From positions 1-12,179 of IMG/VR virus record IMGVR_UViG_3300033141_003953: a stretch of DNA of 12,179 nucleotides, one strand, 5' to 3'. The notes beneath the pieces are model-generated. The model did no database searches, was not told the origin of the DNA, and saw only the letters and a list, made by a program, of their open reading frames with translations. Positions 1 to 12,179 of the stretch are shown piece after piece; positions within the stretch are counted from its first letter, which is position 1, and the number at the start of each line of letters is the position of its first letter. The position numbers and the translations under genes are program-made. The stretch is from a virus.

Positions 1-114
1 TCATATTAATTTTTCTCCTGCATCTTTCTCAAGATTAGCTTTTAATAACACTAACCCTCTTTTCCAATCTTCTCCCTTTGCATGTTTTTGTTCTTGCTCT
101 AAATCTATAATTCT
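1..114. repeat. Left copy of exact 114-bp terminal direct repeat
   Basis: Bases 1-114 are identical base for base to 12066-12179 (checked by hand). The repeat lies inside the 3' part of the CDS at 1-225, which suggests a circular-assembly overlap or terminal redundancy rather than a dedicated non-coding terminus. Confidence 0.95.
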
Positions 115-225
115 CCTCTTAATAAATTCTTTTACATCTGTCATTAAAAAAATACCATTATCTAATTTTCCATGAGTATAAATGGGTCTGCTCATTCTCT
201 CACTCAAATTAAATTCTTTTTTCAT
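1..225 (-). CDS. Hypothetical protein, 74 aa
   Basis: ORF with ATG at 225 and TGA at 3-1. It starts 1 nt after the stop of the upstream gene (227), which implies coupled translation. No motif recognised. Confidence 0.55.
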   Translation of the reverse strand: MKKEFNLSERMSRPIYTHGKLDNGIFLMTDVKEFIKRRIIDLEQEQKHAKGEDWKRGLVLLKANLEKDAGEKLI

Positions 226-226
226 T

Positions 227-451
227 TTATTTTTTCTCTTCCAGCCATTTAGCTAATCTTTCAAAATAAGAAGCTGCGCTTTCATCTCTTTCAGCTTTAA
301 ATATTCTCTTAATTTTTCTAAAATCTTTAAGATACATTCTAATAACTATTGTCCCTTTACTTATACTTCCCCTGCTTGCTTGTTTAATGCCTTTATTCAT
401 GTTATAACTACGTATAACACCTTTATAAATGTTTCGTTTTTTAACAATCAC
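227..451 (-). CDS. Small basic protein, possible ribbon-helix-helix DNA binder, 74 aa
   Basis: Overlaps the upstream gene by 11 nt. A short beta-like strand (TIVIRMYL) is followed by two helices (KDFRKIKRIFKAE, SAASYFERLAKWLEE), a layout resembling Arc/CopG-type RHH proteins. The function is inference only. Confidence 0.5.
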   Translation of the reverse strand: MIVKKRNIYKGVIRSYNMNKGIKQASRGSISKGTIVIRMYLKDFRKIKRIFKAERDESAASYFERLAKWLEEKK

Positions 452-674
452 TATCAGGTAATAAACCTTTTCTGCCTCTTGTAGCTGGGGATATTAAATA
501 GGTGATATATCTGCAATAATCCCCCTCAACATTATAACATCTTTTTATATGGACATCTGTTGGTCTTAAAGTTACTCGGTGTTTTATACAATATACTGTA
601 TTTCCTTCTGCTTGTTCTACAAGATAGTTCCTTCTTCTTCTTATTCTTTTGATTTGTTTTTTTGTTTTTTTCAT
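441..674 (-). CDS. Very basic Cys/His protein, possible zinc-knuckle nucleic-acid binder, 77 aa
   Basis: The ORF track gives 441..746, but that start overlaps the fibre gene by 65 nt. The ATG at 674 lies 7 nt after the fibre stop (682-684) and gives MKKTKKQIKRIRRRR.... It contains C-x2-H-x9-H-x3-C (CIKH...HIKRC) plus one more Cys. Confidence 0.5.
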   Translation of the reverse strand: MKKTKKQIKRIRRRRNYLVEQAEGNTVYCIKHRVTLRPTDVHIKRCYNVEGDYCRYITYLISPATRGRKGLLPDSDC

Positions 675-681
675 TTTAATT

Positions 682-2229
682 TTAATGGAAGGCAGCCCAA
701 GTTGCTGGGCTTCCCCCTGAAGTGCAACCATAAAATTTATTATCAACTATGTTATATACAATTTCCCCTTCTGTTCCGTCAGTGTTGTTCATTCCTGCGT
801 CTGATACCTGTCTCGGTTTGAATCGTCCTGTGCAGGTGATAGTTTCTGTTGAAGAATTACATAAACTAACGTTTCCGTTTGCAGTAAAATCACCAGCAAG
901 AGTTAAACCTCCTGTTGAAGTGAAGTCTGTCCCTGCATTACCTATGTTTTTAATTCTGTAATTGTTCATATCTAAAGGTCTCCTAAAATCTATATCTCCC
1001 CCTGATTTTCTTGATATTAAAATAGGTGTGTCTATATGTGTTCCATTATCATTTTTTGCAAAAAGCCCAAAATTAGAACCTGCATCGCTTCCGCTTTCTG
1101 CACTATTATTTGCTCCCATTTCCCACCTTAAACTATCGTCTGTTGTCCAGCTTATAACTCTAAAAGTTCCAGCTTCATTTTTTAGTATGAATTTCCCGCC
1201 GTTTGTTGTTAAATCTCCTGTTGTTGTGTCACTTGCATCATTTTTTAAATAATCTGAATGTGCCTGATTATTGTTTGCAAGATGATTATCTATTTCCTGA
1301 TGTGTGTTTGTTCCTATGTTTTGAATTGCTGTATGGTCTATGTCTGTTGTTAAGTTATGAGTATTTGACAGAGAATTGTGATTTATCTCGCTGTCATTTG
1401 TTGAGATATTTGCTCCTGCTATTGTTATTCCTGTTCCTTCTGTTAATTCCTGCTGAAATCCTGTATGTCCTGCACTTGCATAATCTAAATTTGCTAAACT
1501 ATCATGCTGTCTTTGAAATGAAACTCCTCTGACTTCCACCCTTGTTCCTGTTGTTCCTTCCATATAAATATCTATGTTGGTAGCTACTGGGTGAGAATTG
1601 TTTGCATAAACCTTTACAACAATTCTGTCCCCACTGCTTAAAGGATATTCTTCGCTTACTGTAAGGTGGAAATTATGTTCTTCTTCTGTATTTCCTATAA
1701 AATCTGTTAATTCTGTTGTTCCTATTAATGTCTCACTTCCCCCATTATCTCTTACATAGAATTCTCCATAAAATTTTAATCTTCCTGCACTCCCAGCTTT
1801 TAGATGCGCGTGCATTTCATAAACTCCCCTTGTTAAAATTCTTATTAATGCATAAGCGTTATATGAACTTTCTGTTATAAATGAGCCTATTAGATAATTG
1901 TTTGTATTTCCCGGAACTGAATCACTTACAGTTTCTTTTGCTGTTCCATCAATATCTGGCTTCATTGTATAATAGCCTTCAATATCAGAATTTTCTTTAT
2001 ATCCAAATAAATCTATTCCTGTATTTACACTGACATTATCAACATATTCTTTATTTACAATATCCTTTGCACCAGAAATAGTTTGAGTTGTTCCCTGTTG
2101 CATATTTAAGGATTTGACAATATTGTAATCATCCATATTGTCAAAATTTCCTGCTCCTTCTGGTCTATGAAACTTATTTTTTTTGAAGCTTACACCTCTA
2201 AACATTGTCTTATATGGATTCTTTGCCAT
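682..2229 (-). CDS. Fibre / receptor-binding protein, 515 aa
   Basis: Largest ORF. It is Asn/Thr/Gly/Ser-rich and beta-rich. Residues ~240-330 carry repeated His-containing motifs of the kind common in phage tail fibres (HDSLANLDYASAGHTGF, HNSLSNTHNLTTDIDHTAIQNIGTNTHQEIDNHLANNNQAHSDYL). It has its own upstream intergenic region with a TATA-like box. Confidence 0.7.
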   Translation of the reverse strand: MAKNPYKTMFRGVSFKKNKFHRPEGAGNFDNMDDYNIVKSLNMQQGTTQTISGAKDIVNKEYVDNVSVNTGIDLFGYKENSDIEGYYTMKPDIDGTAKETVSDSVPGNTNNYLIGSFITESSYNAYALIRILTRGVYEMHAHLKAGSAGRLKFYGEFYVRDNGGSETLIGTTELTDFIGNTEEEHNFHLTVSEEYPLSSGDRIVVKVYANNSHPVATNIDIYMEGTTGTRVEVRGVSFQRQHDSLANLDYASAGHTGFQQELTEGTGITIAGANISTNDSEINHNSLSNTHNLTTDIDHTAIQNIGTNTHQEIDNHLANNNQAHSDYLKNDASDTTTGDLTTNGGKFILKNEAGTFRVISWTTDDSLRWEMGANNSAESGSDAGSNFGLFAKNDNGTHIDTPILISRKSGGDIDFRRPLDMNNYRIKNIGNAGTDFTSTGGLTLAGDFTANGNVSLCNSSTETITCTGRFKPRQVSDAGMNNTDGTEGEIVYNIVDNKFYGCTSGGSPATWAAFH

Positions 2230-2249
2230 AATAATAAATATATCTAATC

Positions 2250-2257
2250 TTTATAAA
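2250..2257 (-). promoter_or_regulatory. TATA-like octamer TTTATAAA, 20 nt upstream of the fibre ATG
   Basis: Lies in the 85-nt intergenic gap 2230-2314. The same octamer at almost the same spacing precedes the terminase gene. No Shine-Dalgarno lies between the box and the ATG. Confidence 0.35.
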
Positions 2258-2314
2258 TATTTGCAGACCCCTATAACTAAGCCCAATAAATTCAGAGATT
2301 AATTGTTATCAGAA

Positions 2315-2485
2315 TTACGCAGATGTCACAGTTTCAAATGCTGTTCCATTATGAAATACAATTTTTCCACCAGATAGAAATATAGCTCCTGAGATTGTCG
2401 GCTGTAATTTATTATTTGCTCCTGAAATAACCTGAGGCAAAATTAACTCACTTGGAGCGCATACATCACCAATAAGCTCCACCAT
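2315..2485 (-). CDS. Hypothetical small protein, 56 aa (MVELIGDVCAPSELILPQVISGANNKLQ...)
   Basis: Hand-translated ORF below the track cutoff. Its ATG overlaps the upstream stop (TAAATG), and GGGGGA lies ~8 nt upstream as a possible RBS. Confidence 0.5.
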   Translation of the reverse strand: MVELIGDVCAPSELILPQVISGANNKLQPTISGAIFLSGGKIVFHNGTAFETVTSA

Positions 2486-2659
2486 TTATTTTCCCCCTTT
2501 CTTTTTCTTTACTTCTTCTTTTTCTTTAGAATTCTCTAAAAAATATTCAACATCGTACATCTTGCCTGGGTCTTCTGCAATATCAGCAGGTAGATTTCCA
2601 TTTATATCTCTATGGTCCCACCACTTCTTTCCTCTTTGCATTTTTCCTTTGTGTGACAT
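2486..2659 (-). CDS. Hypothetical small charged protein, 57 aa (MSHKGKMQRGKKWWDHRDING...)
   Basis: Hand-translated ORF below the track cutoff. It starts 1 nt after the capsid gene stop and fills otherwise unexplained space in a gene-dense operon. Confidence 0.5.
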   Translation of the reverse strand: MSHKGKMQRGKKWWDHRDINGNLPADIAEDPGKMYDVEYFLENSKEKEEVKKKKGGK

Positions 2660-2660
2660 T

Positions 2661-3530
2661 TTAACTTTGTGTGTTAGTTATTACATAGATAGCTTTTGGG
2701 TCTGTAACTTGTAGATGACCTATTTCCCAGCTTCTAATTGTGAATTTAATTCCTTTATCTTCAATAACTGCAGATGTTAATCCTACTACAGATTTCCATG
2801 TTGCAGCTCTTTGTCCTATGATTATCATTGCTTCGTCGTCTTCAACTGAATTAGTTTTAATTATTGTTAATCCACAGATTTGTCCCACCTTTCCATTAGA
2901 AACAACATCAGCAGTTTTAAAACTTGGATTATTAATTACTTTAGAGTTCATCATTAGATTCCTGTAATCTTTTGGTGATAATAATAAATAACCATTTTCT
3001 TGCGCGTCGTAATTATGTTCATCCATCGCTTGTATTCCAGTTAAAATATCTCTTATTGGGTCTCTATCTGCTACTGTTGCGCTGTCCCATGTTGCAACTG
3101 CAGCTGCAGTTTGTATTCCTGTAGCTCCTGATAATCCTGAATAAATTTGGTCATCTACAGCTTTTGCAATCGCTCTTGCTACTCTTAAAATTGTTCTTGC
3201 CTGAACATCAATAGCATCTGTCAATCTGTCTTCCATAAAGACATGACCTTCTGCTGCATATTTTTCATTTCTTGCAGAATGTTTTGTCCAGCTTGGGTCT
3301 ACATGAGGGAATGCTGCGCCTCTTGGGACTCCTTTAATGTTTAACTGGTCTTTTGCTGTTAAGTCTTCTGGATTTTCCCTATAATATGTTTCTTCCCATG
3401 AACTTGAACTTTGAAGTAATAGAACTTGTTTTAGTTTATATTGCTGTAACGCAAACCCTTTTACAGCTTTTGAAACATTCTCAGCTCTGAGTTCATAATC
3501 GCCCATATTTAAATTTGTTCCTGCTCCCAT
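2661..3530 (-). CDS. Major capsid protein, HK97-fold-like, 289 aa
   Basis: Its position directly after the decoration-like gene (1-nt gap) and its size are typical. A long amphipathic helix, TDAIDVQARTILRVARAIAKAVDDQIYSGL, resembles the HK97 spine helix, and the C-terminal half is beta-rich. No N-terminal delta domain is present, consistent with a separate scaffold gene. Confidence 0.75.
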   Translation of the reverse strand: MGAGTNLNMGDYELRAENVSKAVKGFALQQYKLKQVLLLQSSSSWEETYYRENPEDLTAKDQLNIKGVPRGAAFPHVDPSWTKHSARNEKYAAEGHVFMEDRLTDAIDVQARTILRVARAIAKAVDDQIYSGLSGATGIQTAAAVATWDSATVADRDPIRDILTGIQAMDEHNYDAQENGYLLLSPKDYRNLMMNSKVINNPSFKTADVVSNGKVGQICGLTIIKTNSVEDDEAMIIIGQRAATWKSVVGLTSAVIEDKGIKFTIRSWEIGHLQVTDPKAIYVITNTQS

Positions 3531-3531
3531 T

Positions 3532-3957
3532 TTAACCTAATAATAATTGAACATTTATAACTTCATCTGCAGAACCGTCTTCTAATGCTCTGCCAAATAT
3601 TGCGCCTCCGCTTGCTGTTGGAATGTCTGGTATTGGCGCAACTGTATTTGCTCCACTAATCATTACAAAATCTCCTGCATTTACAGCATTTGTGCATTTT
3701 ATATCAAATATTCCTGTAGTGTAGCATGATATTGTTGTAGAACCATCGTTTGCTTCTTTATCAAAACACGCAACTCCTGCTCCCCTATTGACTATTGCTG
3801 CTCCCGGCGAACTATCGCTTGAATTTATTGCTGTTCTTGGGTCTTGCAATAATAATAAATTGCCCCCTGAGATATGTGTTCCGTCTGCAACAGTGTAAGT
3901 TATAGGGTTTCCACCGTCGGGACCCAAATCAACTGTATATGCTCCTGATAATACCAT
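3532..3957 (-). CDS. DUF2190-like head decoration / capsid cement protein, 141 aa
   Basis: Gly/Ala-rich beta protein immediately upstream of the capsid gene. The layout ...GAGVACFDKEANDGSTTISCYTTGIFDIK...AGDFVMISGANTV...IFGRALEDGSADEVINVQLL matches my recollection of the DUF2190 family consensus (GVA...GvF...Gd.V...iG.Ale...V.V.L). Confidence 0.6.
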   Translation of the reverse strand: MVLSGAYTVDLGPDGGNPITYTVADGTHISGGNLLLLQDPRTAINSSDSSPGAAIVNRGAGVACFDKEANDGSTTISCYTTGIFDIKCTNAVNAGDFVMISGANTVAPIPDIPTASGGAIFGRALEDGSADEVINVQLLLG

Positions 3958-3978
3958 AGCAAAATTAAAAACTTAAAC

Positions 3979-3986
3979 TATTTAAA
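3979..3986 (-). promoter_or_regulatory. TATA-like octamer TTTAAATA, 21 nt upstream of the decoration-gene ATG
   Basis: Read on the minus strand: AAGATTTAAATA + 21 nt + ATG. It overlaps the stop codon of the upstream gene. There is no Shine-Dalgarno. Confidence 0.35.
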
Positions 3987-4323
3987 TCTTTCGTTTATTT
4001 GGTATGCCAAATTTTTCTCTTAGTTCTCCCACAAAAGGATTAAACCTATTGTTAATTTCTGTTTCTATATCTTGGATTCTATATTTATACCATGCTCTTC
4101 CTAGAAGATAACAACCAATTCCATAAAAAATACCGAGAATGAGGGTTTTTTTCACATCTAAACTACTAATCCCAAATAATGCAATCATATATTTTAGATA
4201 TGATGTTAATCCCCATCCTCTATCAAAATAAGCTTTTGCGACTAAAGGTTTAAAAATCTTTCTTTTATCAATTTCATAACCCTTCTGTTCCATCTGGTAA
4301 ATTTTTATCTTCTTTAATTCCAA
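3982..4323 (-). CDS. Small membrane protein with two predicted TM helices, 113 aa
   Basis: Hydrophobic segments LTSYLKYMIALFGISSL and TLILGIFYGIGCYLLGRAW are followed by a charged C-terminus. The real start may be the internal Met at 4293 (MEQKGYEI...), which would cut the overlap with the upstream ORF from 50 to 20 nt. Confidence 0.6.
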   Translation of the reverse strand: MELKKIKIYQMEQKGYEIDKRKIFKPLVAKAYFDRGWGLTSYLKYMIALFGISSLDVKKTLILGIFYGIGCYLLGRAWYKYRIQDIETEINNRFNPFVGELREKFGIPNKRKI

Positions 4324-4765
4324 TTCCTATTTTTTCGACGTTGTTTAGATATAAAGGCAGTCTTTCTATACTTTCTCCGTCATATTTTGGAATTTTTTTT
4401 ATACCTAAAATTTTTCTTAAAATAGTTATGTATTTTTGATGTTTTTTATGTTGTGTTTTTCCTTGATTATTTTCCAATATTGACCTTAACATTAAGTCTT
4501 TATATTCTTTTGGAAAAACAATCTCCCACAGCTGAATTGGTCTGACTGCAACCTGAACCATAGTGTTCTCTCCTCTAAACTTAAACGGCAAATACTTTCC
4601 TCTAAGGTCATTAATAAACCTATCTACGTCGTGTTTTATTCCTCTTGTTATTAGATATAAGTGCATATTAGATGAACAACGGATTTTCTTGCGCATTCTA
4701 AAATCGCATCTTTTGTAAAATTTATATTTACTGATGCGTATTTTGTTCCGGTGGTGATAACCCAA
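4274..4765 (-). CDS. Hypothetical protein, 163 aa as drawn (start uncertain)
   Basis: As drawn, the long ORF overlaps 4651..4866 by 115 nt. Internal starts at 4696 (MRKKIR) or 4666 (MHLYLITRGIKHDV..., 130 aa) are more plausible. No motif recognised. Confidence 0.55.
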   Translation of the reverse strand: MGYHHRNKIRISKYKFYKRCDFRMRKKIRCSSNMHLYLITRGIKHDVDRFINDLRGKYLPFKFRGENTMVQVAVRPIQLWEIVFPKEYKDLMLRSILENNQGKTQHKKHQKYITILRKILGIKKIPKYDGESIERLPLYLNNVEKIGIGIKEDKNLPDGTEGL

Positions 4766-4866
4766 TTAACACCATAGGCAACCCCTAAAATGTATCCAAT
4801 TAAGAACGCAATAATATAACTTGCTATTTTTTCGATTCTTTTTCGGAATTTTCCTCTGCCGGACAT
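4651..4866 (-). CDS. Small membrane protein with one TM helix, 71 aa
   Basis: Basic N-terminus (MSGRGKFRKRIEK) followed by the hydrophobic helix IASYIIAFLIGYILGVAYGVNWVI. Confidence 0.5.
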   Translation of the reverse strand: MSGRGKFRKRIEKIASYIIAFLIGYILGVAYGVNWVITTGTKYASVNINFTKDAILECARKSVVHLICTYI

Positions 4867-4994
4867 TTTTCTAATGCTTGTTTAAATGATTTAAGAACAA
4901 TTTTATGTATTTCTATCCCTTTCTCCATTTTTTTTATTGTTTCCTCTGACGCTTTTATTTCTATTTCTATATCTTTTTTAGATAAAACCATCAT
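4824..4994 (-). CDS. Possible small charged helical protein, 56 aa (MMVLSKKDIEIEIKASEETIKKMEKG...)
   Basis: Hand-translated ORF that fills the 111-nt gap between 4978..5295 and 4651..4866. It overlaps the former by 17 nt and the latter by 43 nt, and ends TCG AAA AAA TAG. Confidence 0.3.
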   Translation of the reverse strand: MMVLSKKDIEIEIKASEETIKKMEKGIEIHKIVLKSFKQALEKCPAEENSEKESKK

Positions 4995-5295
4995 CTTTAA
5001 GTGGATTTGCTTCTCCTGTCATCACTTTTTTTGCATATTCTACATCACTTATAGGTTCTGGTTTTGGAGGTGTTTGTCCTGCTTCACTTTCTCCACCTAA
5101 ACTTTTCCTTGCTAAAATTTCTTCTTCTCTTTTAATTAATTCTTCTTTTTTTGTGTTTGCTTCTTCCAGCCTTTCAGCTGCTTCGTTTGCTCGTCTAATA
5201 ACCTCAATCTCTTCTGGCTTATTCCCATTATCATTTGATTCATCTGCATTCTTTTGTTTTTTTTCTTTCTGTTCTTTTTGCTCATTCATTTCCAT
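4978..5295 (-). CDS. Acidic coiled-coil protein, putative capsid scaffolding protein, 105 aa
   Basis: Extremely Glu/Lys-rich helical sequence (EEIEVIRRANEAAERLEEANTKKEELIKREEEILARK) in the head module. It is preceded by a strong Shine-Dalgarno. The functional call is inference from composition and position. Confidence 0.5.
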   Translation of the reverse strand: MEMNEQKEQKEKKQKNADESNDNGNKPEEIEVIRRANEAAERLEEANTKKEELIKREEEILARKSLGGESEAGQTPPKPEPISDVEYAKKVMTGEANPLKDDGFI

Positions 5296-5303
5296 TATGT
5301 TCT

Positions 5304-5311
5304 ACCTCCTT
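5304..5311 (-). promoter_or_regulatory. Shine-Dalgarno AAGGAGGT, 8 nt before the ATG at 5295
   Basis: Occupies the 16-nt gap after the stop at 5312-5314. The extended 12-mer TGAAAGGAGGTA is identical to the one before the OB-fold gene. Confidence 0.6.
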
Positions 5312-6223
5312 TCACATTCTTTCGAGAATTTGCTTCTCCATTTCTATATTTCTTAATACTGAGTTTCCTGTAGTTTCCATTAAAAACCATAAAGGATATA
5401 ATAAAGGATTTGAAATTGTCGCAGCTCTCAGTGTCCATCTTGCTGCATTTACATCTGAAACCGCAGAGTCTAATTCTGCTAATGCTTCTCCTTGTGATAT
5501 ATTTCCAAACCTTACTTGTGAGGAAATATCTCTCGTATTCATGCTTGCCAGTGTTAATAAATTGTCTCCTGCAAACCATGCTGTTAATATTGTTCCTGTT
5601 TGATGAGCTGCTAATAATGCTTTATGTGATTTTGCAAATGCGAAGCCTGCTTTTAATGCAGATTTTAATCCAAACCTGTTCATATTGCTTACTGTTGCCT
5701 GTGCTTTGATTAATGTTCCTTTTCCCACTTGTGTTCCCATAAATCTTACTCCTGCGGCTTTACCTGCTCCACCTAATAATCTTCCTGCTAATAATGTTCC
5801 TCCTGCAACTGCCCCTGCAAAAGCTGCTGTTCCTAAAACATCTCCTGCTGTTATTCTTCCGCCCCACCATGCTCTTGCCTGCTCTCTTTGCTCTGGAGTT
5901 CCTACACCTGCAGCGCTTAATCCCTTTACTGCTAATTTTCCACCTAATTTAAATGCTGAACTTACTAATGGTATTTTTTTGCCGATTTCTCCGACTTTTT
6001 CAATAAACCCTGTTTTCTTTTCTGCCGGTTTTTTTAAAGGCTTTTCTTCTTTTTTTTCTACTTTTTCTAAAAGACCCCCTCTTGCTAATGCCTCAGTCCT
6101 TCTTTTTGTTTTAATTTTTTTTAATTCTTTTTCCAAATTTTGTCTTTTAAGAGGCTTAGAGCCAAGTTTTTCCTTTACTTCTTCAAATCTTTTTTTTCGT
6201 TTTCCAAAAAGCCATAATGCCAT
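5312..6223 (-). CDS. Hypothetical protein, 303 aa: Lys-rich N-terminus, Gly/Ala-rich hydrophobic core
   Basis: Long ORF between portal and scaffold. The first ~80 residues are highly basic/charged. The core includes GTAAFAGAVAGGTLLAGRLLGGAGKAAG. No catalytic motif recognised. Confidence 0.65.
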   Translation of the reverse strand: MALWLFGKRKKRFEEVKEKLGSKPLKRQNLEKELKKIKTKRRTEALARGGLLEKVEKKEEKPLKKPAEKKTGFIEKVGEIGKKIPLVSSAFKLGGKLAVKGLSAAGVGTPEQREQARAWWGGRITAGDVLGTAAFAGAVAGGTLLAGRLLGGAGKAAGVRFMGTQVGKGTLIKAQATVSNMNRFGLKSALKAGFAFAKSHKALLAAHQTGTILTAWFAGDNLLTLASMNTRDISSQVRFGNISQGEALAELDSAVSDVNAARWTLRAATISNPLLYPLWFLMETTGNSVLRNIEMEKQILERM

Positions 6224-6231
6224 TTTTTATT

Positions 6232-6399
6232 TTATTTTATCTTCGGTGTTGGAATTGTTATGCCTATTGCTCCTGCAATAACAGCTATAACAGTTGTCAG
6301 TATAATACCATCTATTCCTTTAGATAATGCGAACATTTCTAAAGCTGTTATGCAAAATATTCCAGTGCATACAATCCTCCAATCTATTTTTTTCTTCAT
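6232..6399 (-). CDS. Small membrane protein, 55 aa (MKKKIDWRIVCTGIFCITALEMFALSKGIDGIILTTVIAVIAGAIGITIPTPKIK)
   Basis: Hand-translated ORF below the track cutoff. It starts 2 nt after the portal stop (6402-6404) and has two hydrophobic segments. Confidence 0.55.
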   Translation of the reverse strand: MKKKIDWRIVCTGIFCITALEMFALSKGIDGIILTTVIAVIAGAIGITIPTPKIK

Positions 6400-6401
6400 C
6401 A

Positions 6402-7496
6402 TTATTGTCCGCTTCCTGCGGTGGTTTCGTTTGGTTGAATATTAATTGGTTCATCCTTTGCTTTATCTGATAATAAATCGTTTTCTAAACTTGCTGGAAA
6501 TTCAAGCTCAATTTTTAATCCTAATTGCTCCCAGACCTGCTCTTCAACAAATAACTGCTCTTCTTCTATTGTCTGCTGAAATGCTAAATATGCAATTTTT
6601 GCTGTTGCTTCTGTAAATTCTGATGAACTTCCTACTATGATTTGAGGCACTCCTGTCGCCTGAAAGAAATAATTTTTTAATGCTTCAATCCATGGCAGAG
6701 GGTTTAAAGTTGCATTTGTCGGCACAGAAAGTAATTCATGCTCTACTGTCCCTTTTGGGACAAAAATATTCTCTGCGTTTTCTACTGCTTTGTCTGCTTT
6801 TGTTTTAAATGCTGCTATTTCTGCAGTATCGTCGGTATCTAAATGCCAGACAATTCTTGGCACGACATTTCTATGCATTAATTTTTTCATATCAGACATC
6901 GCTTCATTTCTCATTAAAATTATTGTTTCTAATGCTTCAATCATAGATTGCCCATGAATTTCATCTGCCACTCTGTTTCTTGCTAAGTGGAATATATTCT
7001 CTGGATTAAATTTTTTGTTTGGAGATTTTACTTTTGATTTTTGTTCATATCTTTTTATTCTTCCTTGCCTATCTACTACGATTATTATTACTCCGGGGTC
7101 TAATGGTTTAAGATTTAATATGTCCCCCTCATCATTTCTGATTATTTCACAAAAAGCGTCTCCGCCTATATTGTAGGTTCTTATCATATTTTCTATGATT
7201 GTGTTAAATGTATCTTTTCCCCAGCCTGTTATGAAATTTAGGGTTGCTTCTGTTTCTGAGTCTGCTTTAAATCCTTTTCCTACTGTCCATGTTGCTTTTG
7301 CGTCAATAACAGCCTTTAATTCTGGGATTGTTCTGTAATATCCTAAATATTTAGTCCAGTTTGTATTTTCCCATGTTGTTTCATCCTGCTCTGCTGGTCC
7401 ATCTGTTGTTGATACATCTACAGAAAAGTCGCTGACTACTCCTGACATATTTCCGTAGTCTGCTGAACTTATTTTTGTTTCGGGCATTTTAAACAT
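6402..7496 (-). CDS. Portal protein, 364 aa
   Basis: Size, position near the terminase, and sequence blocks resemble HK97-family portals as I recall them (NIGGDAFCEIIRNDEGDILNLKPLDP, FHLARNRVADEIHGQSMIEAL, ATGVPQIIVG...EATAKIAYLAFQQTIEEEQ). The start overlaps the upstream gene by 8 nt. Confidence 0.75.
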   Translation of the reverse strand: MFKMPETKISSADYGNMSGVVSDFSVDVSTTDGPAEQDETTWENTNWTKYLGYYRTIPELKAVIDAKATWTVGKGFKADSETEATLNFITGWGKDTFNTIIENMIRTYNIGGDAFCEIIRNDEGDILNLKPLDPGVIIIVVDRQGRIKRYEQKSKVKSPNKKFNPENIFHLARNRVADEIHGQSMIEALETIILMRNEAMSDMKKLMHRNVVPRIVWHLDTDDTAEIAAFKTKADKAVENAENIFVPKGTVEHELLSVPTNATLNPLPWIEALKNYFFQATGVPQIIVGSSSEFTEATAKIAYLAFQQTIEEEQLFVEEQVWEQLGLKIELEFPASLENDLLSDKAKDEPINIQPNETTAGSGQ

Positions 7497-8352
7497 CTAT
7501 TACAAATGGAACATGGAAAGTTAGTGTTGTCGGTTGTCCATCTTCAATTATTTGAGCAAAGTTAGTCCCTCCTGTATAAGCCCCTGAAATAAATCTATCA
7601 TTTCTATTTGCTGGGTCGTGTGCTATTCCAGCTGAAAATATTTCTGATGGTGCTGTATTTTTAAACCATGCCTCTATAGTAAATCTTAAGATTTCTCCCT
7701 TTTTAAAATGTTGCACTTCTGATAGATTTATTTTAATTAAGGCTGTGTGGCTTTGCAGCTTCCACCAGTCCATATTCATTGCATGAAAATAAACTGATTG
7801 TCCGCTTCCTAATTCTGTTTCTGTTGTTCCATCGTAGTGTTTAGCTGTGACTGTTACATAAAAAGTCACATCTGCCTCATTATTTTCCAGATTTTGAACT
7901 CCTACTGGGACATTTATTATTAAATCTCCTTTGATGTTTTTTGGTGTGTTGAATGTTATATCAAAATCTTCATCTACTAATTTTGTAAAAGAGTTTGCAA
8001 TATCTCCACTTGCAATACCTGATTTTAACCACTCAGAGTAAATTGTTGGCACTGTTGTTACTAATGTCGCTCCACTTGTTCCTCTTGCTCCATAATAAAC
8101 ATCATATCCTACGCCATTCGCTATATCAAAATAATCATAGTTTATTAATTGTTTTCCCGGAGCAAATAATGGCTCTACAGGTCTAATACTTAATTTTTTT
8201 TTAGGAATTTCAGCGGGTTCTGGTTCTGAGAATTCAGCTGGCGGTAGGATTATTGGTGGCGGTTCTAATTTCTTTTTTTTAATTTCGTGCGGGTCTTCTT
8301 CTTCCAGTTCTGGTTCTCTTGCAAATAAATTTGTTCCAAAATTTAAAGCCAT
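7489..8352 (-). CDS. Hypothetical structural-looking protein, 287 aa
   Basis: An acidic, Pro-rich N-terminal linker (EPPPIILPPAEFSEPEPAEIPKKK) is followed by a beta-rich domain. Coupled to its neighbours by 8- and 10-nt overlaps. Confidence 0.6.
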   Translation of the reverse strand: MALNFGTNLFAREPELEEEDPHEIKKKKLEPPPIILPPAEFSEPEPAEIPKKKLSIRPVEPLFAPGKQLINYDYFDIANGVGYDVYYGARGTSGATLVTTVPTIYSEWLKSGIASGDIANSFTKLVDEDFDITFNTPKNIKGDLIINVPVGVQNLENNEADVTFYVTVTAKHYDGTTETELGSGQSVYFHAMNMDWWKLQSHTALIKINLSEVQHFKKGEILRFTIEAWFKNTAPSEIFSAGIAHDPANRNDRFISGAYTGGTNFAQIIEDGQPTTLTFHVPFVIDV

Positions 8353-8789
8353 CTTTTTATTGATAATTCTTTATTTAAATCAGGCAGTTTTCCCTGATTT
8401 CTTTCTGAAAATAAAACTGCATGACCTATATTTAATAATTCTTCATTTATGTTTATTCCCTGATGAATAATTTCTCCTAATATTCTTCCTCTCCTTCCTA
8501 CTCTTTGTTTATCTGGAATAATTTCAACTTTCGCTCCTGACAACCTCTTTTCCAGCCAGTTTCTTGCTTCTTTCCCCCCTTTTTCATTCATTTCTGGAGC
8601 CTGAATTTTTGACAGTCTTATTGGAAAATCAAAATCTCTCTCACTCCATCTTACTCTTATTGTATCTCCATCTATAATTTTTACTACTTCTGCCTGAAAA
8701 TTTTCTGTTATCTGCTTGTGCGGGCTGTCAAAATAATAAATCTGCATTTGGCTGTTTGTTAATTCAGGAAATTTGTTAAAATCATGCAT
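8343..8789 (-). CDS. Staphylococcal-nuclease (thermonuclease, SNase) homologue, 148 aa
   Basis: Aligns by eye to S. aureus nuclease: IDGDT = IDGDT; IRLSKIQAPE vs FRLLLVDTPE; KQRVGRRGRILGEI vs DKYGRGLAYIY; NEELLNIGHA vs NEALVRQGLA. Confidence 0.8.
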   Translation of the reverse strand: MHDFNKFPELTNSQMQIYYFDSPHKQITENFQAEVVKIIDGDTIRVRWSERDFDFPIRLSKIQAPEMNEKGGKEARNWLEKRLSGAKVEIIPDKQRVGRRGRILGEIIHQGININEELLNIGHAVLFSERNQGKLPDLNKELSIKRWL

Positions 8790-9168
8790 CGTCTATAAAA
8801 TCTGTTTGTTTTTTGTCTTTGAGTAATGATAACCCTCTTAATGCTCCGTCTCTTAATACAGTTATCATACTTTCGGCTTCTGCTCTGCTTGTATATCCAG
8901 ACATATCATAGTTAATGCAGTAAATTGCTGCTAAATTGCTGGCAATTTCACTTAATATGTGTTTTACATCTTCGTTTAATGTTGTATATGTGTCGCTGTA
9001 ATTTACTCTTGTCATAGTGTTTATGAATGCTTCTGCTTCATTAATCCACTGAGTTATTAATTCGTCTGGTGTCTGACCGTAGATTGTAGTTCCACCTGTT
9101 AGATTAGAATTTACGTTGCTTCCTGCTTTTACTAAAACAGCTCCGCTTGTTGTCATTATTGCTGCCAT
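8782..9168 (-). CDS. Possible head-tail adaptor (gp6-like connector), 128 aa
   Basis: A helical segment, PDELITQWINEAEAFINTMTRVNY, resembles the conserved N-terminal helix pair of gp6-like connector proteins. It lies directly downstream of the terminase. Function is low-confidence. Confidence 0.45.
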   Translation of the reverse strand: MAAIMTTSGAVLVKAGSNVNSNLTGGTTIYGQTPDELITQWINEAEAFINTMTRVNYSDTYTTLNEDVKHILSEIASNLAAIYCINYDMSGYTSRAEAESMITVLRDGALRGLSLLKDKKQTDFIDDA

Positions 9169-9175
9169 GATTTTT

Positions 9176-10447
9176 TTATGTTATCCATATATTTAAATGT
9201 TTGTCTTTTACACACCAGACAGCTCTTATAAGTGCTTCTGCAATATGTGTATAATTTCCAAAAATTTTTAATTTTCCGTCTTCAGTATATTCATATTGAA
9301 CTGATTTTAAACTATGAAAAATTTCCTCTCTGTTTAAAAAGCTAACTTTTTCTCTTTCCATAAGATTCAACAAATTATTGTATAAATCTTCTTTTAATAA
9401 TTTTTTCCGCCTTTTTTCTTCATTATCTAAACTTCTTCTGGAATTATTAATTGCTTCTACTTTTCTTTTTGTTTGTGGATGGTCCAGCAAACTATCAAAT
9501 ACTCCTACTCCTAATCCTCCATCATCAATATATATTCTTTTATAATTGTTTTTTTTATCTAAAGCAATAATTTCAGTTGTTATTTGGGTTAAAAGCATTT
9601 TAGTGAAAATTTGGCAGTCAAACATAATTAATTCGCCATTTCTTTTTCGTTCAACAGAACAAAAAACTGTTTCATCTCCGCCCATTCTTGCTATATCTAC
9701 TCCTAAAAATTTTTTATAATTTGGAGTATAGTTTTCAGGTGCTATCATTCTTTCTTTTATTAAGTTATCAGGAAAGAATTGTCTTAGTTCATCAACAAAT
9801 TCCCCAAGATATTCCTGTGCGAATTGTAATTTTGTCATCCTTTTCTTTTCTCTTTCTATATTTTCCATCATTCTTTCTTTCATATTTTTTGGTCTTATTT
9901 TTGCTACTTCTGGCGTAGATATGTGAAATTTTTTATAATTTTTATCCTGAAATGATTCATAGAAATAACCCTGTCTGCCAAATGGTGTGCTTAACAGCCA
10001 TATATCCCCACCTGTTGTTGCAAGCATAGGAGTTATTGCTGCCCAAACATCTTCGGGTATAAAGGCGGCTTCATCTACAATCAATAAATCTATTGTGTAT
10101 CCTCTTATTCCGTAACCTGATTCTCCGACTGGCAGGCAGTAAATTGTTGAATTGTTTTTTAATTGTAGTTTGTGTTTTGTTGGTCTGTCTTTTCCAGTTT
10201 TAATAATTTTTTTATCTTTATTATGGATATAGGACAATATTTTTTCAAAAAGAAGTTGTGCTTGTCTTTCAACTTTTGCAACCACCATAATTGTTTTTTC
10301 TGAATTTTTTATTGCGTATTCTCCTGCTTTCATAGAGATTATTGTAGATTTCCCGACTTGTCTCCCAGACCTTAAAGCGATATTTCCATTAGAATTTAAA
10401 ATTTCTTTTTGCCATTTGTCGAGTTTGAAATTAAATATGTTTTTCAT
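9176..10447 (-). CDS. terL: Terminase large subunit, 423 aa
   Basis: Walker A RSGRQVGKST; Walker B IDLLIVDEAAF; coupling motif LSTP; RNase-H-like nuclease acidic motifs LGVDIARMGGDETV and IYIDDGGLGVGV. Confidence 0.9.
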   Translation of the reverse strand: MKNIFNFKLDKWQKEILNSNGNIALRSGRQVGKSTIISMKAGEYAIKNSEKTIMVVAKVERQAQLLFEKILSYIHNKDKKIIKTGKDRPTKHKLQLKNNSTIYCLPVGESGYGIRGYTIDLLIVDEAAFIPEDVWAAITPMLATTGGDIWLLSTPFGRQGYFYESFQDKNYKKFHISTPEVAKIRPKNMKERMMENIEREKKRMTKLQFAQEYLGEFVDELRQFFPDNLIKERMIAPENYTPNYKKFLGVDIARMGGDETVFCSVERKRNGELIMFDCQIFTKMLLTQITTEIIALDKKNNYKRIYIDDGGLGVGVFDSLLDHPQTKRKVEAINNSRRSLDNEEKRRKKLLKEDLYNNLLNLMEREKVSFLNREEIFHSLKSVQYEYTEDGKLKIFGNYTHIAEALIRAVWCVKDKHLNIWIT

Positions 10448-10468
10448 AGTTTAGTGTTGTTTAGTAAG

Positions 10469-10476
10469 TTTATAAA
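10469..10476 (-). promoter_or_regulatory. TATA-like octamer TTTATAAA preceded by an A-run, 21 nt upstream of the terL ATG
   Basis: Read on the minus strand: ACAAAAAAATTTTATAAA + 21 nt + ATG. There is no Shine-Dalgarno. Confidence 0.4.
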
Positions 10477-10547
10477 ATTTTTTGTGGAGTTCTGAGTTAT
10501 ACAAAACACAGGAACGAACAATAATCGCTAATAACAATACACAAACA

Positions 10548-10573
10548 AGCGAGCGAGCGAAGCGAGCGAGCGA
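10548..10573. repeat. Tandem duplication of AGCGAGCGAGCGA
   Basis: The 13-mer occurs at 10548-10560 and again at 10561-10573. It is followed by the self-complementary GCGCGC-ACGAG-GCGCGC at 10576-10592. Confidence 0.9.
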
Positions 10574-10600
10574 TGGCGCGCACGAGGCGCGCAACACGGA

Positions 10601-10705
10601 ATGTAATGCGCGAACGTAGTGAGCGCGTATTGTTTTATGTAATGCGCGAACGTCTTTAGTAAATGTAATTTCGTGAGCGTGTATTGTTTTATGTAATCTG
10701 AACGT
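10601..10705. repeat. Iteron-like direct repeat array
   Basis: ATGTAAT occurs at 10601, 10637, 10663 and 10691. The 17-mer ATGTAATGCGCGAACGT is exact at 10601-10617 and 10637-10653. The 25-mer GTGAGCG(C/T)GTATTGTTTTATGTAAT occurs at 10619-10643 and 10673-10697 with one mismatch. Confidence 0.85.
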
Positions 10706-10793
10706 AGCGAAAGACTTATAATGTTTCGTTTGTTTCACTATACGCGGACGAAACTTTATATGTCTTTCTCTACGTGAGTATTTGTTTCACGTC

Positions 10794-10893
10794 GCATTAC
10801 AAAACATAAATTTTAAATACTTGGAACGCTTAGAATTTGCAAAGCAAATTCTAAGTTAATAATAGTGGAAAGTTTTAGGTTGTTTTGTAATGC
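10794..10893. repeat. Nested inverted repeats: 13-bp arms flanking a perfect 12-bp-stem hairpin
   Basis: GCATTACAAAACA (10794-10806) is the exact reverse complement of TGTTTTGTAATGC (10881-10893). Between them, CTTAGAATTTGC-AAA-GCAAATTCTAAG (10829-10855) forms a perfect hairpin. Confidence 0.9.
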
Positions 10894-10940
10894 AAAGAAA
10901 TTAGAAACATTTAAATAGTATGTTTTCTTGTCTCTCTTAT

Positions 10941-11066
10941 ATGCGCTTCGATACGAGTAAGTTTCTCGTCTATCAAAAGCCAGTGACAGAAGGCATAGCA
11001 GGGACGGTTCGTAACTATACTTCTTCACTGACTTTTTACGTAAAACGTTCTATACTTACTCTCTGA
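10941..11066 (+). CDS. Speculative 41-aa micro-ORF (MRFDTSKFLVYQKPVTEGIAGTVRNYTSSLTFYVKRSILTL)
   Basis: The ATG lies 23 nt downstream of a plus-strand TTTAAATA (10910-10917), and the ORF ends 17 nt before the 11084 ORF. No other support. Confidence 0.2.
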   Translation: MRFDTSKFLVYQKPVTEGIAGTVRNYTSSLTFYVKRSILTL

Positions 11067-11083
11067 AAAACACAGACAGAGAA

Positions 11084-11296
11084 ATGAAATACATAGAAAT
11101 AAAACAAATTGTGAAACTTCTAAACGGCAAGGACATTAAAATAGAAGGTGAAACTTTTTCTCTTAAATCTATGGCAGGATGGTATAAACTTAAAAGGAGA
11201 CATCACTGCATTTTAGAAGAAGGTGAGCAATTAGAAGAAGTGAAAGAAAAAGAAAGAATAGAAATGAATAAAAAATTAAATTTCTCCAGCCTTTAA
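11084..11296 (+). CDS. Hypothetical protein, 70 aa; the only plus-strand ORF of at least 60 aa that I accept
   Basis: ORF diverging from the non-coding region. Its 3' end overlaps the convergent minus-strand gene by 21 nt. No motif recognised. Confidence 0.45.
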   Translation: MKYIEIKQIVKLLNGKDIKIEGETFSLKSMAGWYKLKRRHHCILEEGEQLEEVKEKERIEMNKKLNFSSL

Positions 11297-11461
11297 CAAC
11301 ATTTCAAATATTTCCCTGCCTTTTTGTTCAGTTGAGTTTCTTTGATAAGCAAATTGTGCAAATAGTTTCTTTTTATCTATTTCCTTTCCTTCTTCCTGCA
11401 CCTTTCTGCATATCTGCTTCATCCACTCAACATTTTCTCTTCTTGATTTTGTTGTTCCCAT
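11276..11461 (-). CDS. Small protein, possible winged-helix/HTH DNA binder, 61 aa
   Basis: Short helical protein (KLFAQFAYQRNSTEQKGREIFEMLLKAGEI) typical in size and pattern of small viral wHTH regulators. Inference only. Confidence 0.45.
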   Translation of the reverse strand: MGTTKSRRENVEWMKQICRKVQEEGKEIDKKKLFAQFAYQRNSTEQKGREIFEMLLKAGEI

Positions 11462-11524
11462 TTTCTTAATTTAAACAGGGGGTATGGACGCATTTGAATA
11501 ATCCCCCCCTGTGAATATACAATT

Positions 11525-11944
11525 TCAATTAAAAGCTTCCTGTGCCTGCTTTACAACTTTGATAGATTCTGCCATTATTTTCTCATTACTTTCATCTAAA
11601 TCGAATAATCCTCTTATTACTGTAAATATTTCAGTTGCCAGCCCAACAGGGTCTTTAGGATATGTTTTCGCTTCAATAGAGCCATTCTGAGCCACTTTCT
11701 TTACTTCTTCAATATCATTACCCTCTATTTTCTCCATTTCTTTCATATCGAAGTATCCATCTTCGTTTATCTCTCCCTTTATCAATACTGCATCACCCGG
11801 CTTGTGATTTGTTGCGTGTTTTTTATCAAATGTAGAATAATTTTTCCCATTAACAATAAAAACCCATCTTGTGTATGGCTTTCCGTTTTTGCCGACTCCT
11901 GAACTCATATCAACTTTTTCAATAATTCCTTTTATTGTTTCCAT
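11525..11944 (-). CDS. OB-fold-like protein, possible ssDNA-binding protein, 139 aa
   Basis: The N-terminal ~70 residues have a beta-rich pattern (GKNGKPYTRWVFIVNGKNYSTFDKK...PGDAVLIKGEI) resembling small OB-fold SSBs, with an acidic/helical C-terminal tail. Preceded by a strong Shine-Dalgarno. Confidence 0.5.
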   Translation of the reverse strand: METIKGIIEKVDMSSGVGKNGKPYTRWVFIVNGKNYSTFDKKHATNHKPGDAVLIKGEINEDGYFDMKEMEKIEGNDIEEVKKVAQNGSIEAKTYPKDPVGLATEIFTVIRGLFDLDESNEKIMAESIKVVKQAQEAFN

Positions 11945-12065
11945 GTTTACCTCCTTTCATTTTCATTCGAATATTACAAAGGGGCTACTCGGAATTACGC
12001 TTTTATGAAGAGTAATGTAGACTACATTTTAGAACATCTTAGCAACCACTTCGCCCCTTTGACTA
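11945..12065. promoter_or_regulatory. Intergenic control region with nested palindromes
   Basis: CAAAGGGGC (11977-11985) pairs with GCCCCTTTG (12053-12061). A central palindrome, AATGTAG-A-CTACATT, lies at 12014-12028. Confidence 0.45.
11949..11956 (-). promoter_or_regulatory. Shine-Dalgarno AAGGAGGT, 4 nt before the ATG at 11944
   Basis: Read on the minus strand: TGAAAGGAGGTAAAC ATG. The 12-mer is the same as at 5303-5314. Confidence 0.6.
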
Positions 12066-12179
12066 TCATATTAATTTTTCTCCTGCATCTTTCTCAAGAT
12101 TAGCTTTTAATAACACTAACCCTCTTTTCCAATCTTCTCCCTTTGCATGTTTTTGTTCTTGCTCTAAATCTATAATTCT
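12066..12179. repeat. Right copy of exact 114-bp terminal direct repeat (re-presents the 3' end of the CDS at 1-225)
   Basis: Identical to 1-114. Confidence 0.95.

Follow-up and report, generated by a model that had tools for sequence, protein, structure and literature searches.

The smallest tailed phages isolated so far are phi29-like, among them Astrithrvirus at 11.6 kb and Mycoplasma phage P1 at 11.7 kb (PMC11476376, PMC7762592). Their genome is linear and ends in inverted terminal repeats, and they encode a protein-primed family-B DNA polymerase, a terminal protein and a phi29-type packaging ATPase (PMC11476376). Among the viruses of Asgard archaea, the verdandiviruses (~20 kb) and NMV2 (15.7 kb) carry no replication genes, and for both a reliance on the host has been predicted (10.1101/2021.07.29.453957; 10.64898/2026.08.12.739948). 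Genomes of 10–15 kb also occur among the capsid-forming PICIs (phage-inducible chromosomal islands) and P4-type satellites, which encode an HK97 capsid protein, portal, terminase and head–tail connector and no recognisable tail tube. A survey of contigs of up to 20 kb with terminal repeats, which probably sampled such contigs in bulk, reports small capsid-gene genomes that are mostly without portal and tail genes, and the family treated here is undescribed there (10.1101/2025.06.18.659913). That family is represented by 12,179 nt of IMGVR_UViG_3300033141_003953; this whole stretch is called the window. Judged from its ends and its relatives, the window is the complete genome of an uncultured virus, 12,065 bp long with a circular map. 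We consider that it is probably a complete autonomous, podovirus-like minimal archaeal head–tail virus that would be copied by host machinery.

The HK97-fold capsid protein, the portal and the large terminase subunit (TerL, with ATPase and nuclease) by which Caudoviricetes and Duplodnaviria are recognised are all present in the window. For the portal-vertex tail of that group, there is a supported fibre, a weak adaptor and a jelly-roll protein (u287), and no tube, nozzle, sheath or tape measure was detected. The phi29-like phages are closest in size. They share with the window an expected short-tailed virion, a predicted T=3 capsid, a separate scaffold (a proposed one in the window), and the lack of a prohead protease and a small terminase. 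The window differs from them in having no polymerase, a T4-like TerL with an RNaseH-like domain, a circular map, archaeal promoters and no packaging-RNA match in Rfam. Closest in lifestyle are the verdandiviruses, which like the window are small, archaeal and HK97-type, with circular contigs from anoxic sediment or water (10.1101/2021.07.29.453957). In both, the cement gene lies immediately upstream of the capsid gene and there are no replication or transcription genes, and the window's family as a whole shares with the verdandiviruses arrays of small genes with helix-turn-helix or zinc-binding regulators. Compared by description, the verdandiviruses are larger (19.5–20.6 kb, against 10.0–13.6 kb in the window's family) and have a siphovirus-type tail with a major tail protein, tape measure and baseplate hub. 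The closest cultured relative of the TerL and capsid proteins is HGTV-1 (Halogranum tailed virus 1), a haloarchaeal myovirus of 144 kb, but the likeness is limited to hallmark proteins; HGTV-1 has a genome 12 times larger, a contractile tail and replication genes of its own. Finally, the PICIs and P4-type satellites resemble the window in size and head genes, but they reside as integrated elements in bacteria, encode an integrase and a primase or replicase, and have no fibre, whereas the window has a fibre, has neither integrase nor replicase, was never found integrated and appears archaeal.

Closed genomes and the head and packaging genes

The window has a direct terminal repeat, and no inverted terminal repeat was found at its ends. 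The G+C content is 33.7%. There are 23 accepted open reading frames (ORFs), which cover 92% of the 12,065-bp unit, and 22 of them are on the minus strand, running round the circle from TerL (10447) to the small ORF g61 (11276). The terminal repeat and the genes of the head, packaging, connector and fibre, with one nuclease gene among them, are as follows. Promoters are given as a B recognition element with a TATA box (BRE/TATA).

1–114 = 12066–12179, no strand: terminal direct repeat, 100% identity over 114 nt; circular or terminally redundant assembly
9176–10447, minus: TerL, ATPase plus RNaseH-like nuclease, T4-like type; phrog_2 1e-50, Terminase_6N 3e-13, Terminase_6C 2e-4
8782–9168, minus: probable head–tail adaptor, a weak call; phrog_4931 2e-4, DUF3199 3e-3, Phage_connect_1 0.06
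8343–8789, minus: SNase-family (staphylococcal-nuclease-like) nuclease; PF00565 4e-11, phrog_452 6e-15; accessory, in 10 of 25 relatives
6402–7496, minus: portal protein; PF04860 1.6e-17, phrog_9232 1e-20; in 25 of 25 relatives
3532–3957, minus: capsid cement/decoration protein; PF09956 2.7e-7, phrog_122; own BRE/TATA promoter at 3979–3991, 21 nt before the ATG
2661–3530, minus: HK97-fold major capsid protein, 289 amino acids (aa); phrog_1650 3e-22, Phage_capsid_4 8e-12, Phage_capsid 7e-5, Linocin_M18 1.6e-6
682–2229, minus: tail fibre/receptor-binding protein; phrog_29706 6e-7 (tail-spike, weak); N-terminal ~60 residues conserved, the rest variable

Relatives were retrieved with the capsid protein and with a profile built from it, which gave 40 IMG/VR contigs, and by exact-protein look-ups, which added further contigs from JGI, ENA, NCBI and Logan to make 50 related contigs in all. 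The longest is 13,732 bp. Five of the 50 close on themselves, each independently. Counting the window, the closed genomes number six, at 10,011, 10,951, 11,194, 12,065 (the window), 12,119 and 13,618 bp, and their terminal repeats are 114–127 nt long. Homologues of two window proteins described below, u287 (43 clusters) and u163 (144 clusters), occur only on contigs of up to 13.7 kb (13.3 kb for u163). When 185,579 prokaryotic species were scanned, with one genome for each, the single match was a free-standing contig of 11.3 kb. Integrated copies were absent from the ~190 homologue clusters, the 50 related contigs and the 185,579 reference genomes, and no related contig has flanking chromosomal genes. 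The window has no match in a plasmid collection and no nucleotide-level match among deposited phages. Since there are six closed genomes, no longer contig that bears a homologue, and a conserved gene order, the reading of the window as a fragment of a larger genome fails.

The gene order in the family is TerL, adaptor, (SNase), a u287-like gene, portal, a small membrane protein, a post-portal protein and an acidic small protein, followed by (u163, u113), cement, capsid protein, two to three small ORFs, fibre and variable small genes, where brackets mark genes that are not always present. Of the 25 loci that reach 10 kb, all have TerL, portal and capsid protein, and 24 have the adaptor. The family occurs in many samples; Ace Lake in Antarctica contributes seven of the relatives, all from its anoxic zone (IMG 3300035698; PMC8542988, PMC9324843). 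From these sequences, it is a discrete group of the smallest head–tail-type viruses so far seen, at 10.0–13.6 kb; a literature search found no published description of it. The fibre and accessory modules seem to be the main source of size variation. The largest closed genome (L015, 13,618 bp) has two fibre-sized genes, one of them across the circular junction, and another relative has two cement genes in tandem (L042:4983–5802).

By profile matches, the head and packaging set of T4-type TerL, portal, HK97-fold capsid protein and cement protein is complete in the window. The capsid protein is short, the cement gene is directly upstream of it, and the searches gave no gene for a prohead protease. 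A further match of the capsid protein is to the encapsulin family (Linocin_M18, above), which is reported for that of VerdaV2 as well (10.1101/2025.06.18.659913). A profile of 15 adaptor-family sequences found no match among PDB sequences. The fibre genes of relatives reach PHROG tail-fibre families at down to 9e-19 and contain Collagen, YadA_head, Laminin_G_3, Beta_helix/NosD and Phage Tail Collar domains. A constant N-terminus of ~60 residues followed by variable sequence is typical of a receptor-binding fibre, in which a fixed anchor would carry exchangeable tips. The SNase gene sits inside the adaptor-to-portal operon; host-DNA scavenging and a virion-associated nuclease are both possibilities for its role.

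These results can be set beside the original prediction, an annotation of the window from its letters, which had placed terL, portal, HK97-like capsid, decoration-like, adaptor-like and fibre genes at the positions listed. The terminase, portal, capsid and decoration calls are confirmed by profile matches, and the fibre call, weak in the window itself, is supported by the fibres of the relatives. For the adaptor, the coordinates stand and the identity stays weak. The SNase gene had been overlooked. The original prediction also allowed that the contig might be a piece of a larger genome and proposed looking in metagenomes for related contigs of ~12 kb; the 50 contigs are what that search returned, and none exceeds 13.7 kb.

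Archaeal promoters and the host

A motif, GAAAnATTTAAATA, is common to the long non-coding region of the window (10448–11083) and the stretch upstream of the cement gene, and this was the starting point of a family-wide test. In 43 non-redundant loci (398 kb), the distance from TTTAWATA to the ATG of ORFs of at least 45 codons was recorded over spacings of 5–59 nt. Among 196 sites, 38 end exactly 21 nt before the ATG and nine end at 22 nt, while all other spacings have 0–4 each. Six control octamers of the same composition have 0–2 sites at 21 nt. Positions -6 to -3 of the box read G-A-A-A in 24, 35, 33 and 35 of the 38 sites, respectively. Within the window, BRE/TATA boxes precede the cement gene, u287 (at 19 nt) and the adaptor, which is the first gene of its operon and has a canonical box at 9190–9202, 21 nt before the ATG. 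TATA variants precede the fibre gene and TerL; the one at TerL, TTTTATAA, ends 21 nt upstream of the ATG. A few internal genes are preceded by GGAGG sites and not by BRE/TATA. Neither sigma-70 promoters nor intrinsic terminators are enriched.

In the archaeal arrangement of BRE and TATA, transcription starts at or beside the start codon and gives leaderless mRNAs. The fixed 21 nt before the ATG therefore points to leaderless mRNAs made by the host RNA polymerase. Going by these motifs and the predicted starts, the host of the family is archaeal. The protein matches are of the same kind. Compared with cultured viruses, TerL (33% identity over 96%, 4e-53) and the capsid protein (26%, 8e-6) each come closest to HGTV-1, a haloarchaeal virus, the identity of TerL to bacterial phages is only 22–27%, and the accessory regulators of the relatives match archaeal winged-helix families and Hjc. 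With an archaeal host, the missing peptidoglycan hydrolase is expected.

The opposite reading is that the window is not a free archaeal virus at all, and belongs instead to a larger phage as a fragment, to a bacterial phage, or to a domesticated cluster resembling a gene transfer agent. In its favour, one relative is binned with a Bacteroidota metagenome-assembled genome (MAG), and GGAGG ribosome-binding sites stand ahead of a few internal genes. However, archaea too normally have Shine-Dalgarno sites at genes inside operons. The six closed genomes, the size limit of 13.7 kb and the lack of flanking chromosomal genes stand against it, as do the archaeal BRE/TATA boxes at a fixed 21 nt with no excess of sigma-70 promoters. 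We regard it as largely refuted and highly improbable.

Replication, tail and delivery functions

All ORFs of the window of at least 50 aa were compared with Pfam and PHROGs. As the original prediction had maintained, none of them is a recognisable polymerase, primase, helicase, Rep, recombinase, protease, small terminase or peptidoglycan hydrolase. The profile searches of the window also gave no tail tube, nozzle, sheath or tape measure, and no nucleotide-binding or catalytic motifs were seen in it outside TerL. Its largest non-structural ORF is 163 aa. The window has no tRNA and no Rfam family above threshold. In some relatives (e.g., L005 and L015), short ORFs abut TerL in the place where a small terminase was sought, but they are not conserved in the window. 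The original prediction had also allowed that a Rep, polymerase, integrase or tail tube might be hidden among the proteins it could not name; of these, u287 has a jelly-roll fold, u163 gives no match and g139 is a small beta-barrel, as set out below, and no canonical protein of those kinds came to light among the three.

The accessory ORFs of the relatives were screened with Pfam in sets of 60 and then 136 (~200), and among them there was no polymerase, primase, Rep or integrase. The regulators found were archaeal-type winged-helix proteins (TrmB, MarR, HVO_A0261_N, ArnR1-like), and the other matches were CcdA, RusA, weak Hjc and VRR-NUC, Zn-ribbon and fibre domains. The sole replication-type enzyme in the 50 related contigs is a 445-aa AAA_25 (RepA/DnaB-like) helicase (5e-29) at L043:6450–7787 on the plus strand. 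L043 is a distant member, an 11.2-kb contig whose capsid protein is 38% identical to that of the window. The wider group thus varies in its replication module, which the window's clade lacks. Neither the window nor any of the 50 related contigs gave a major tail protein, tape measure or baseplate hub.

Such a gene complement could also be that of a capsid-forming satellite, similar to a PICI or P4, that makes and packages its own small capsid and depends on a helper for the tail (tube or nozzle) and/or replication. None of the tail tube, nozzle, tape measure, replication or lysis genes is recognised, the adaptor is (weakly) of the gp6-like type that in long-tailed phages is joined to further connector and tail proteins, and satellites of archaeal viruses have already been proposed (10.64898/2026.08.12.739948; 10.1101/2025.02.15.638363). 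However, the family encodes a receptor-binding fibre of its own, whose N-terminal anchor is conserved throughout the family and whose C-terminal domains (lectin, collagen and beta-helix) are swapped among members. To our knowledge, tail-stealing satellites have no receptor-binding fibre gene. There is no integrase, and no integrated copy in the large search described above. There are no helper-interference, capsid-redirecting or P4/PICI-type primase–helicase genes, and no candidate helper that shares genes with the family was seen. The satellite reading is weakened by the diversifying fibre together with the lack of an integrase and of integrated copies, and we think it unlikely.

The remaining features of the window, to which the questions of tail, delivery and replication are directed, are as follows.

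10448–11083, no strand: non-coding control region, 636 nt, repeat-rich, between divergent transcription units; the only long gene-free stretch; holds the TerL promoter
7489–8352, minus: u287, a low-confidence N-terminus of ~73 residues and then a jelly-roll/TNF-like beta-sandwich
6232–6402, minus: tm56, small protein with two predicted membrane spans, conserved directly after the portal gene
5312–6223, minus: u303, post-portal protein, isoelectric point (pI) 10.4; a positional family
4978–5295, minus: u105, acidic small protein, 44% charged residues, pI 4.8; in 17 of 25 relatives; upstream of the cement and capsid genes
4274–4666, minus: u163, family-specific alpha/beta protein with conserved start MHLY...; the longest ORF reaches 4765
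3982–4323, minus: u113, partner of u163; a small basic protein containing hydrophobic segments
2315–2659, minus: u57 and u56c, a pair of small conserved ORFs lying between capsid gene and fibre gene; in 14 and 15 of 25 relatives
1–746, minus: u74a (1–225), u74b (227–451) and u101 (441–746, with four Cys), small, poorly conserved and basic
11525–11944, minus: g139, small OB-like beta-barrel protein; in 5 of 25 relatives; homologues in L007, L020, L022 and L032
11084–11296, plus: g70, the only plus-strand gene, a small basic ORF convergent with g61
11276–11461, minus: g61, small basic ORF convergent with g70

The structure of u287 was modelled with 43 homologues at a mean confidence (pLDDT) of 83.6, with an all-beta core at residues 74–284. 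Its Foldseek matches are the C-terminal jelly-roll of cocaine esterase, the needle of cyanophage Pan3 (1e-4), TNF, lectins and the binding domain of a short tail fibre. Because the model is a jelly-roll, u287 is not a tail tube, and that candidate was dropped. As modelled, it is probably a distal tail, knob or receptor-binding component. In L005, the u287 homologue is placed after the fibre module and not beside the portal. The protein downstream of the portal, u303, has an N-terminus that is basic and disordered, a hydrophobic centre rich in Gly and Ala, and a helical C-terminus. It belongs to a fast-evolving positional family of 285–431 aa whose members share this layout, and several of which are linked by phmmer at 1e-6 to 1e-11, and it had no match in Pfam, PHROG or PDB. 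From its position and composition, we propose that it may be an internal, ejection or tape-measure-like protein. For u105, which has a GGAGG ribosome-binding site ahead of the gene, we propose the role of scaffolding protein. The ORFs u57 and u56c are, from their position, candidates for head-completion or tail-accessory proteins, and u74a, u74b and u101 look like variable accessory or regulatory genes. The small membrane proteins of the window are three, tm56, u71 and u113, and these are the only candidates for egress.

It has also to be asked whether an autonomous virus of this kind might have a novel replication protein, with u163, g139 or one of the small basic or Cys-rich ORFs acting as an origin-binding initiator or a recruiter of the replisome. 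In favour is u163 itself, which is strongly conserved (144 homologues), basic (pI 10.0) and modelled from 50 homologues with a pLDDT of 91.3, a confident fold without a structural relative. Foldseek gave no significant match for it, the best E being 0.3 in PDB and 0.16 in BFVD, and its sequence had no match in Pfam or PDB; Rep, integrase and tube were ruled out for u163 on these results. However, u163 lies in the morphogenetic operon, between the scaffold (u105) and cement genes, and not in the variable early region, and BLAST detects it in only about half of the long loci. The second candidate, g139, has an OB-like barrel, adjoins the non-coding region in the window and is directly upstream of TerL in L007. 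Its family has 165 representatives at 50% identity, all small, with an N-terminal beta-barrel and a conserved C-terminal tail whose motif, KDPVGLA...VKQAQEAF(N/S), is reminiscent of the protein-interaction tails of single-stranded DNA-binding proteins (SSBs). The database matches of g139 are marginal (DUF3592, DUF3127, uL3-barrel), and its identity as an SSB was not confirmed. We carry it as a candidate DNA-binding accessory protein. It is present in only 5 of 25 relatives and is therefore not the universal initiator of the family. The helicase of L043 shows that the lineage can hold replication genes, but the lack of nucleotide-binding or catalytic motifs outside TerL in the window argues the other way. 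On balance a novel initiator is distinctly unlikely.

The non-coding region at 10448–11083 is a candidate for the replication origin and/or the packaging site, and in most relatives as well there is a gene-poor stretch near TerL. Two mechanically called ORFs in it have no counterpart in any relative. It contains AAGCGAGCGAGCG twice in tandem at 10547–10572, a 17-nt direct repeat in two copies (10601, 10637), a 25-nt direct repeat in two copies (10619, 10673), a 28-nt inverted repeat with 89% complementarity (10702–10729/10748–10775) and a perfect 12-nt palindrome (10829–10840/10844–10855). These repeats, within 10547–10855, are candidate protein-binding sites. There are also plus-strand BRE/TATA-like boxes at 10808–10819 and 10905–10917 with no ORF at the canonical +21; they could serve a non-coding transcript or a long 5' leader for g70. 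RNA structure is not indicated, the folding z-scores being -0.4 to -1.5, with -1.5 at 10938–11083. A structured RNA similar to a packaging RNA was therefore ruled out for the 636-nt gap, in which there is also no Rfam family. A sub-threshold Rfam match to RAGATH-12 lies outside the gap, at 9160–9240 on the minus strand, where it overlaps both the TerL end and the promoter of the adaptor; it has 36.6 bits, the gathering score being 75 (E = 1.8e-4), and was taken as chance.

Two further repeats lie outside the non-coding region. A perfect 9-nt inverted repeat, CAAAGGGGC...GCCCCTTTG, is at 11977–11985/12053–12061, in the stretch from the u74a end to the g139 start, and a CAGGGGG...CCCCCTG hairpin is at 11476–11482/11505–11511, between g139 and g61. 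They could mark the limits of transcripts or act as regulatory hairpins.

A probable autonomous minimal virus

The original prediction left three options: a minimal podovirus-like virus replicated by its host, a satellite that borrows functions from a helper, and an element with novel tail, ejection or replication proteins. The first fits best. The second loses ground to the diversifying fibre and the lack of any integrated copy. The third holds in part, in that u287 and u303 look like tail or ejection proteins; u163 gives no match. Two results go beyond what had been said there, the archaeal host and the SNase nuclease.

As an autonomous virus, the window would work as follows. The capsid would be small, about T=3 by a published model in which T=3 corresponds to an average genome length of 11.8 kbp with a 95% interval of 8.1–17.1 (PMC7762592). 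It would be built with a separate acidic scaffold (u105) and without a protease, and the cement protein would stabilise it. The adaptor, u287 (the jelly-roll protein) and the fibre would together make up a very short tail, and u303 and the small membrane proteins would be candidates for DNA delivery or egress. All copying of the genome would fall to the host replisome and would probably start in the repeat-rich non-coding region of 636 nt. TerL would then cut concatemers and package them in a headful-like manner, and headful-like packaging would in turn explain the circular assembly. The SNase nuclease might recycle host DNA for nucleotide scavenging.

Several points weigh against this. The particle, the host and the replication strategy are all read from sequence. 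Among the window's proteins none was recognised as a tail tube, nozzle or knob, the adaptor identification is weak, and the structural matches of u287 have TM-scores of only 0.2–0.37. The u303 protein is apparently missing from the two most compact closed genomes (L019 and L037). The origin call is a guess: apart from the promoter motif, the sequence of 10448–11083 is not conserved in relatives, and a conserved origin sequence there was ruled out on that account. A pattern resembling the archaeal origin recognition box has 17 matches against 16 expected, none of them inside 10448–11083, and GC skew is confounded by the coding on one strand and gives no help. Bin labels also conflict, since the window proteins are filed under a Candidatus Heimdallarchaeota MAG in NCBI and L019 (JAYEFL010000205.1) under a Bacteroidota MAG. 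Binning of such small contigs is therefore unreliable, with at least one of them mis-binned, and host assignment from binning was dropped because the labels contradict each other.

Taking these points with the closed genomes, the complete head and packaging set, the fibre and the promoters, the autonomous, host-replicated virus is still the reading that we hold to be probable. A fuller picture can be offered more tentatively. It is possible that the family represents a minimal self-sufficient head–tail virus of ~10 kb and ~20 genes, with a portal-bearing HK97 capsid (probably isometric, T=3), a tail of adaptor, jelly-roll protein and fibre, and replication and transcription supplied by an archaeal, possibly Asgard, host. 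In that case, u163 and u303 would be new solutions to delivery or to recruitment of the replisome.

The closed genomes, down to 10.0 kb, keep TerL, portal, capsid, cement and fibre, and no replication gene is seen save the helicase in the distant L043. The fixed spacing of BRE/TATA to the ATG gives a simple sequence test by which uncultured small viruses can be assigned to archaeal hosts. For the T=3 tailed capsid, so far missing, the family offers a concrete candidate, and it would extend the replication-gene-free strategy of the small Asgard viruses to about half their size. If its members are autonomous, they would lower the known minimum of genes with which a head–tail virus can be made.

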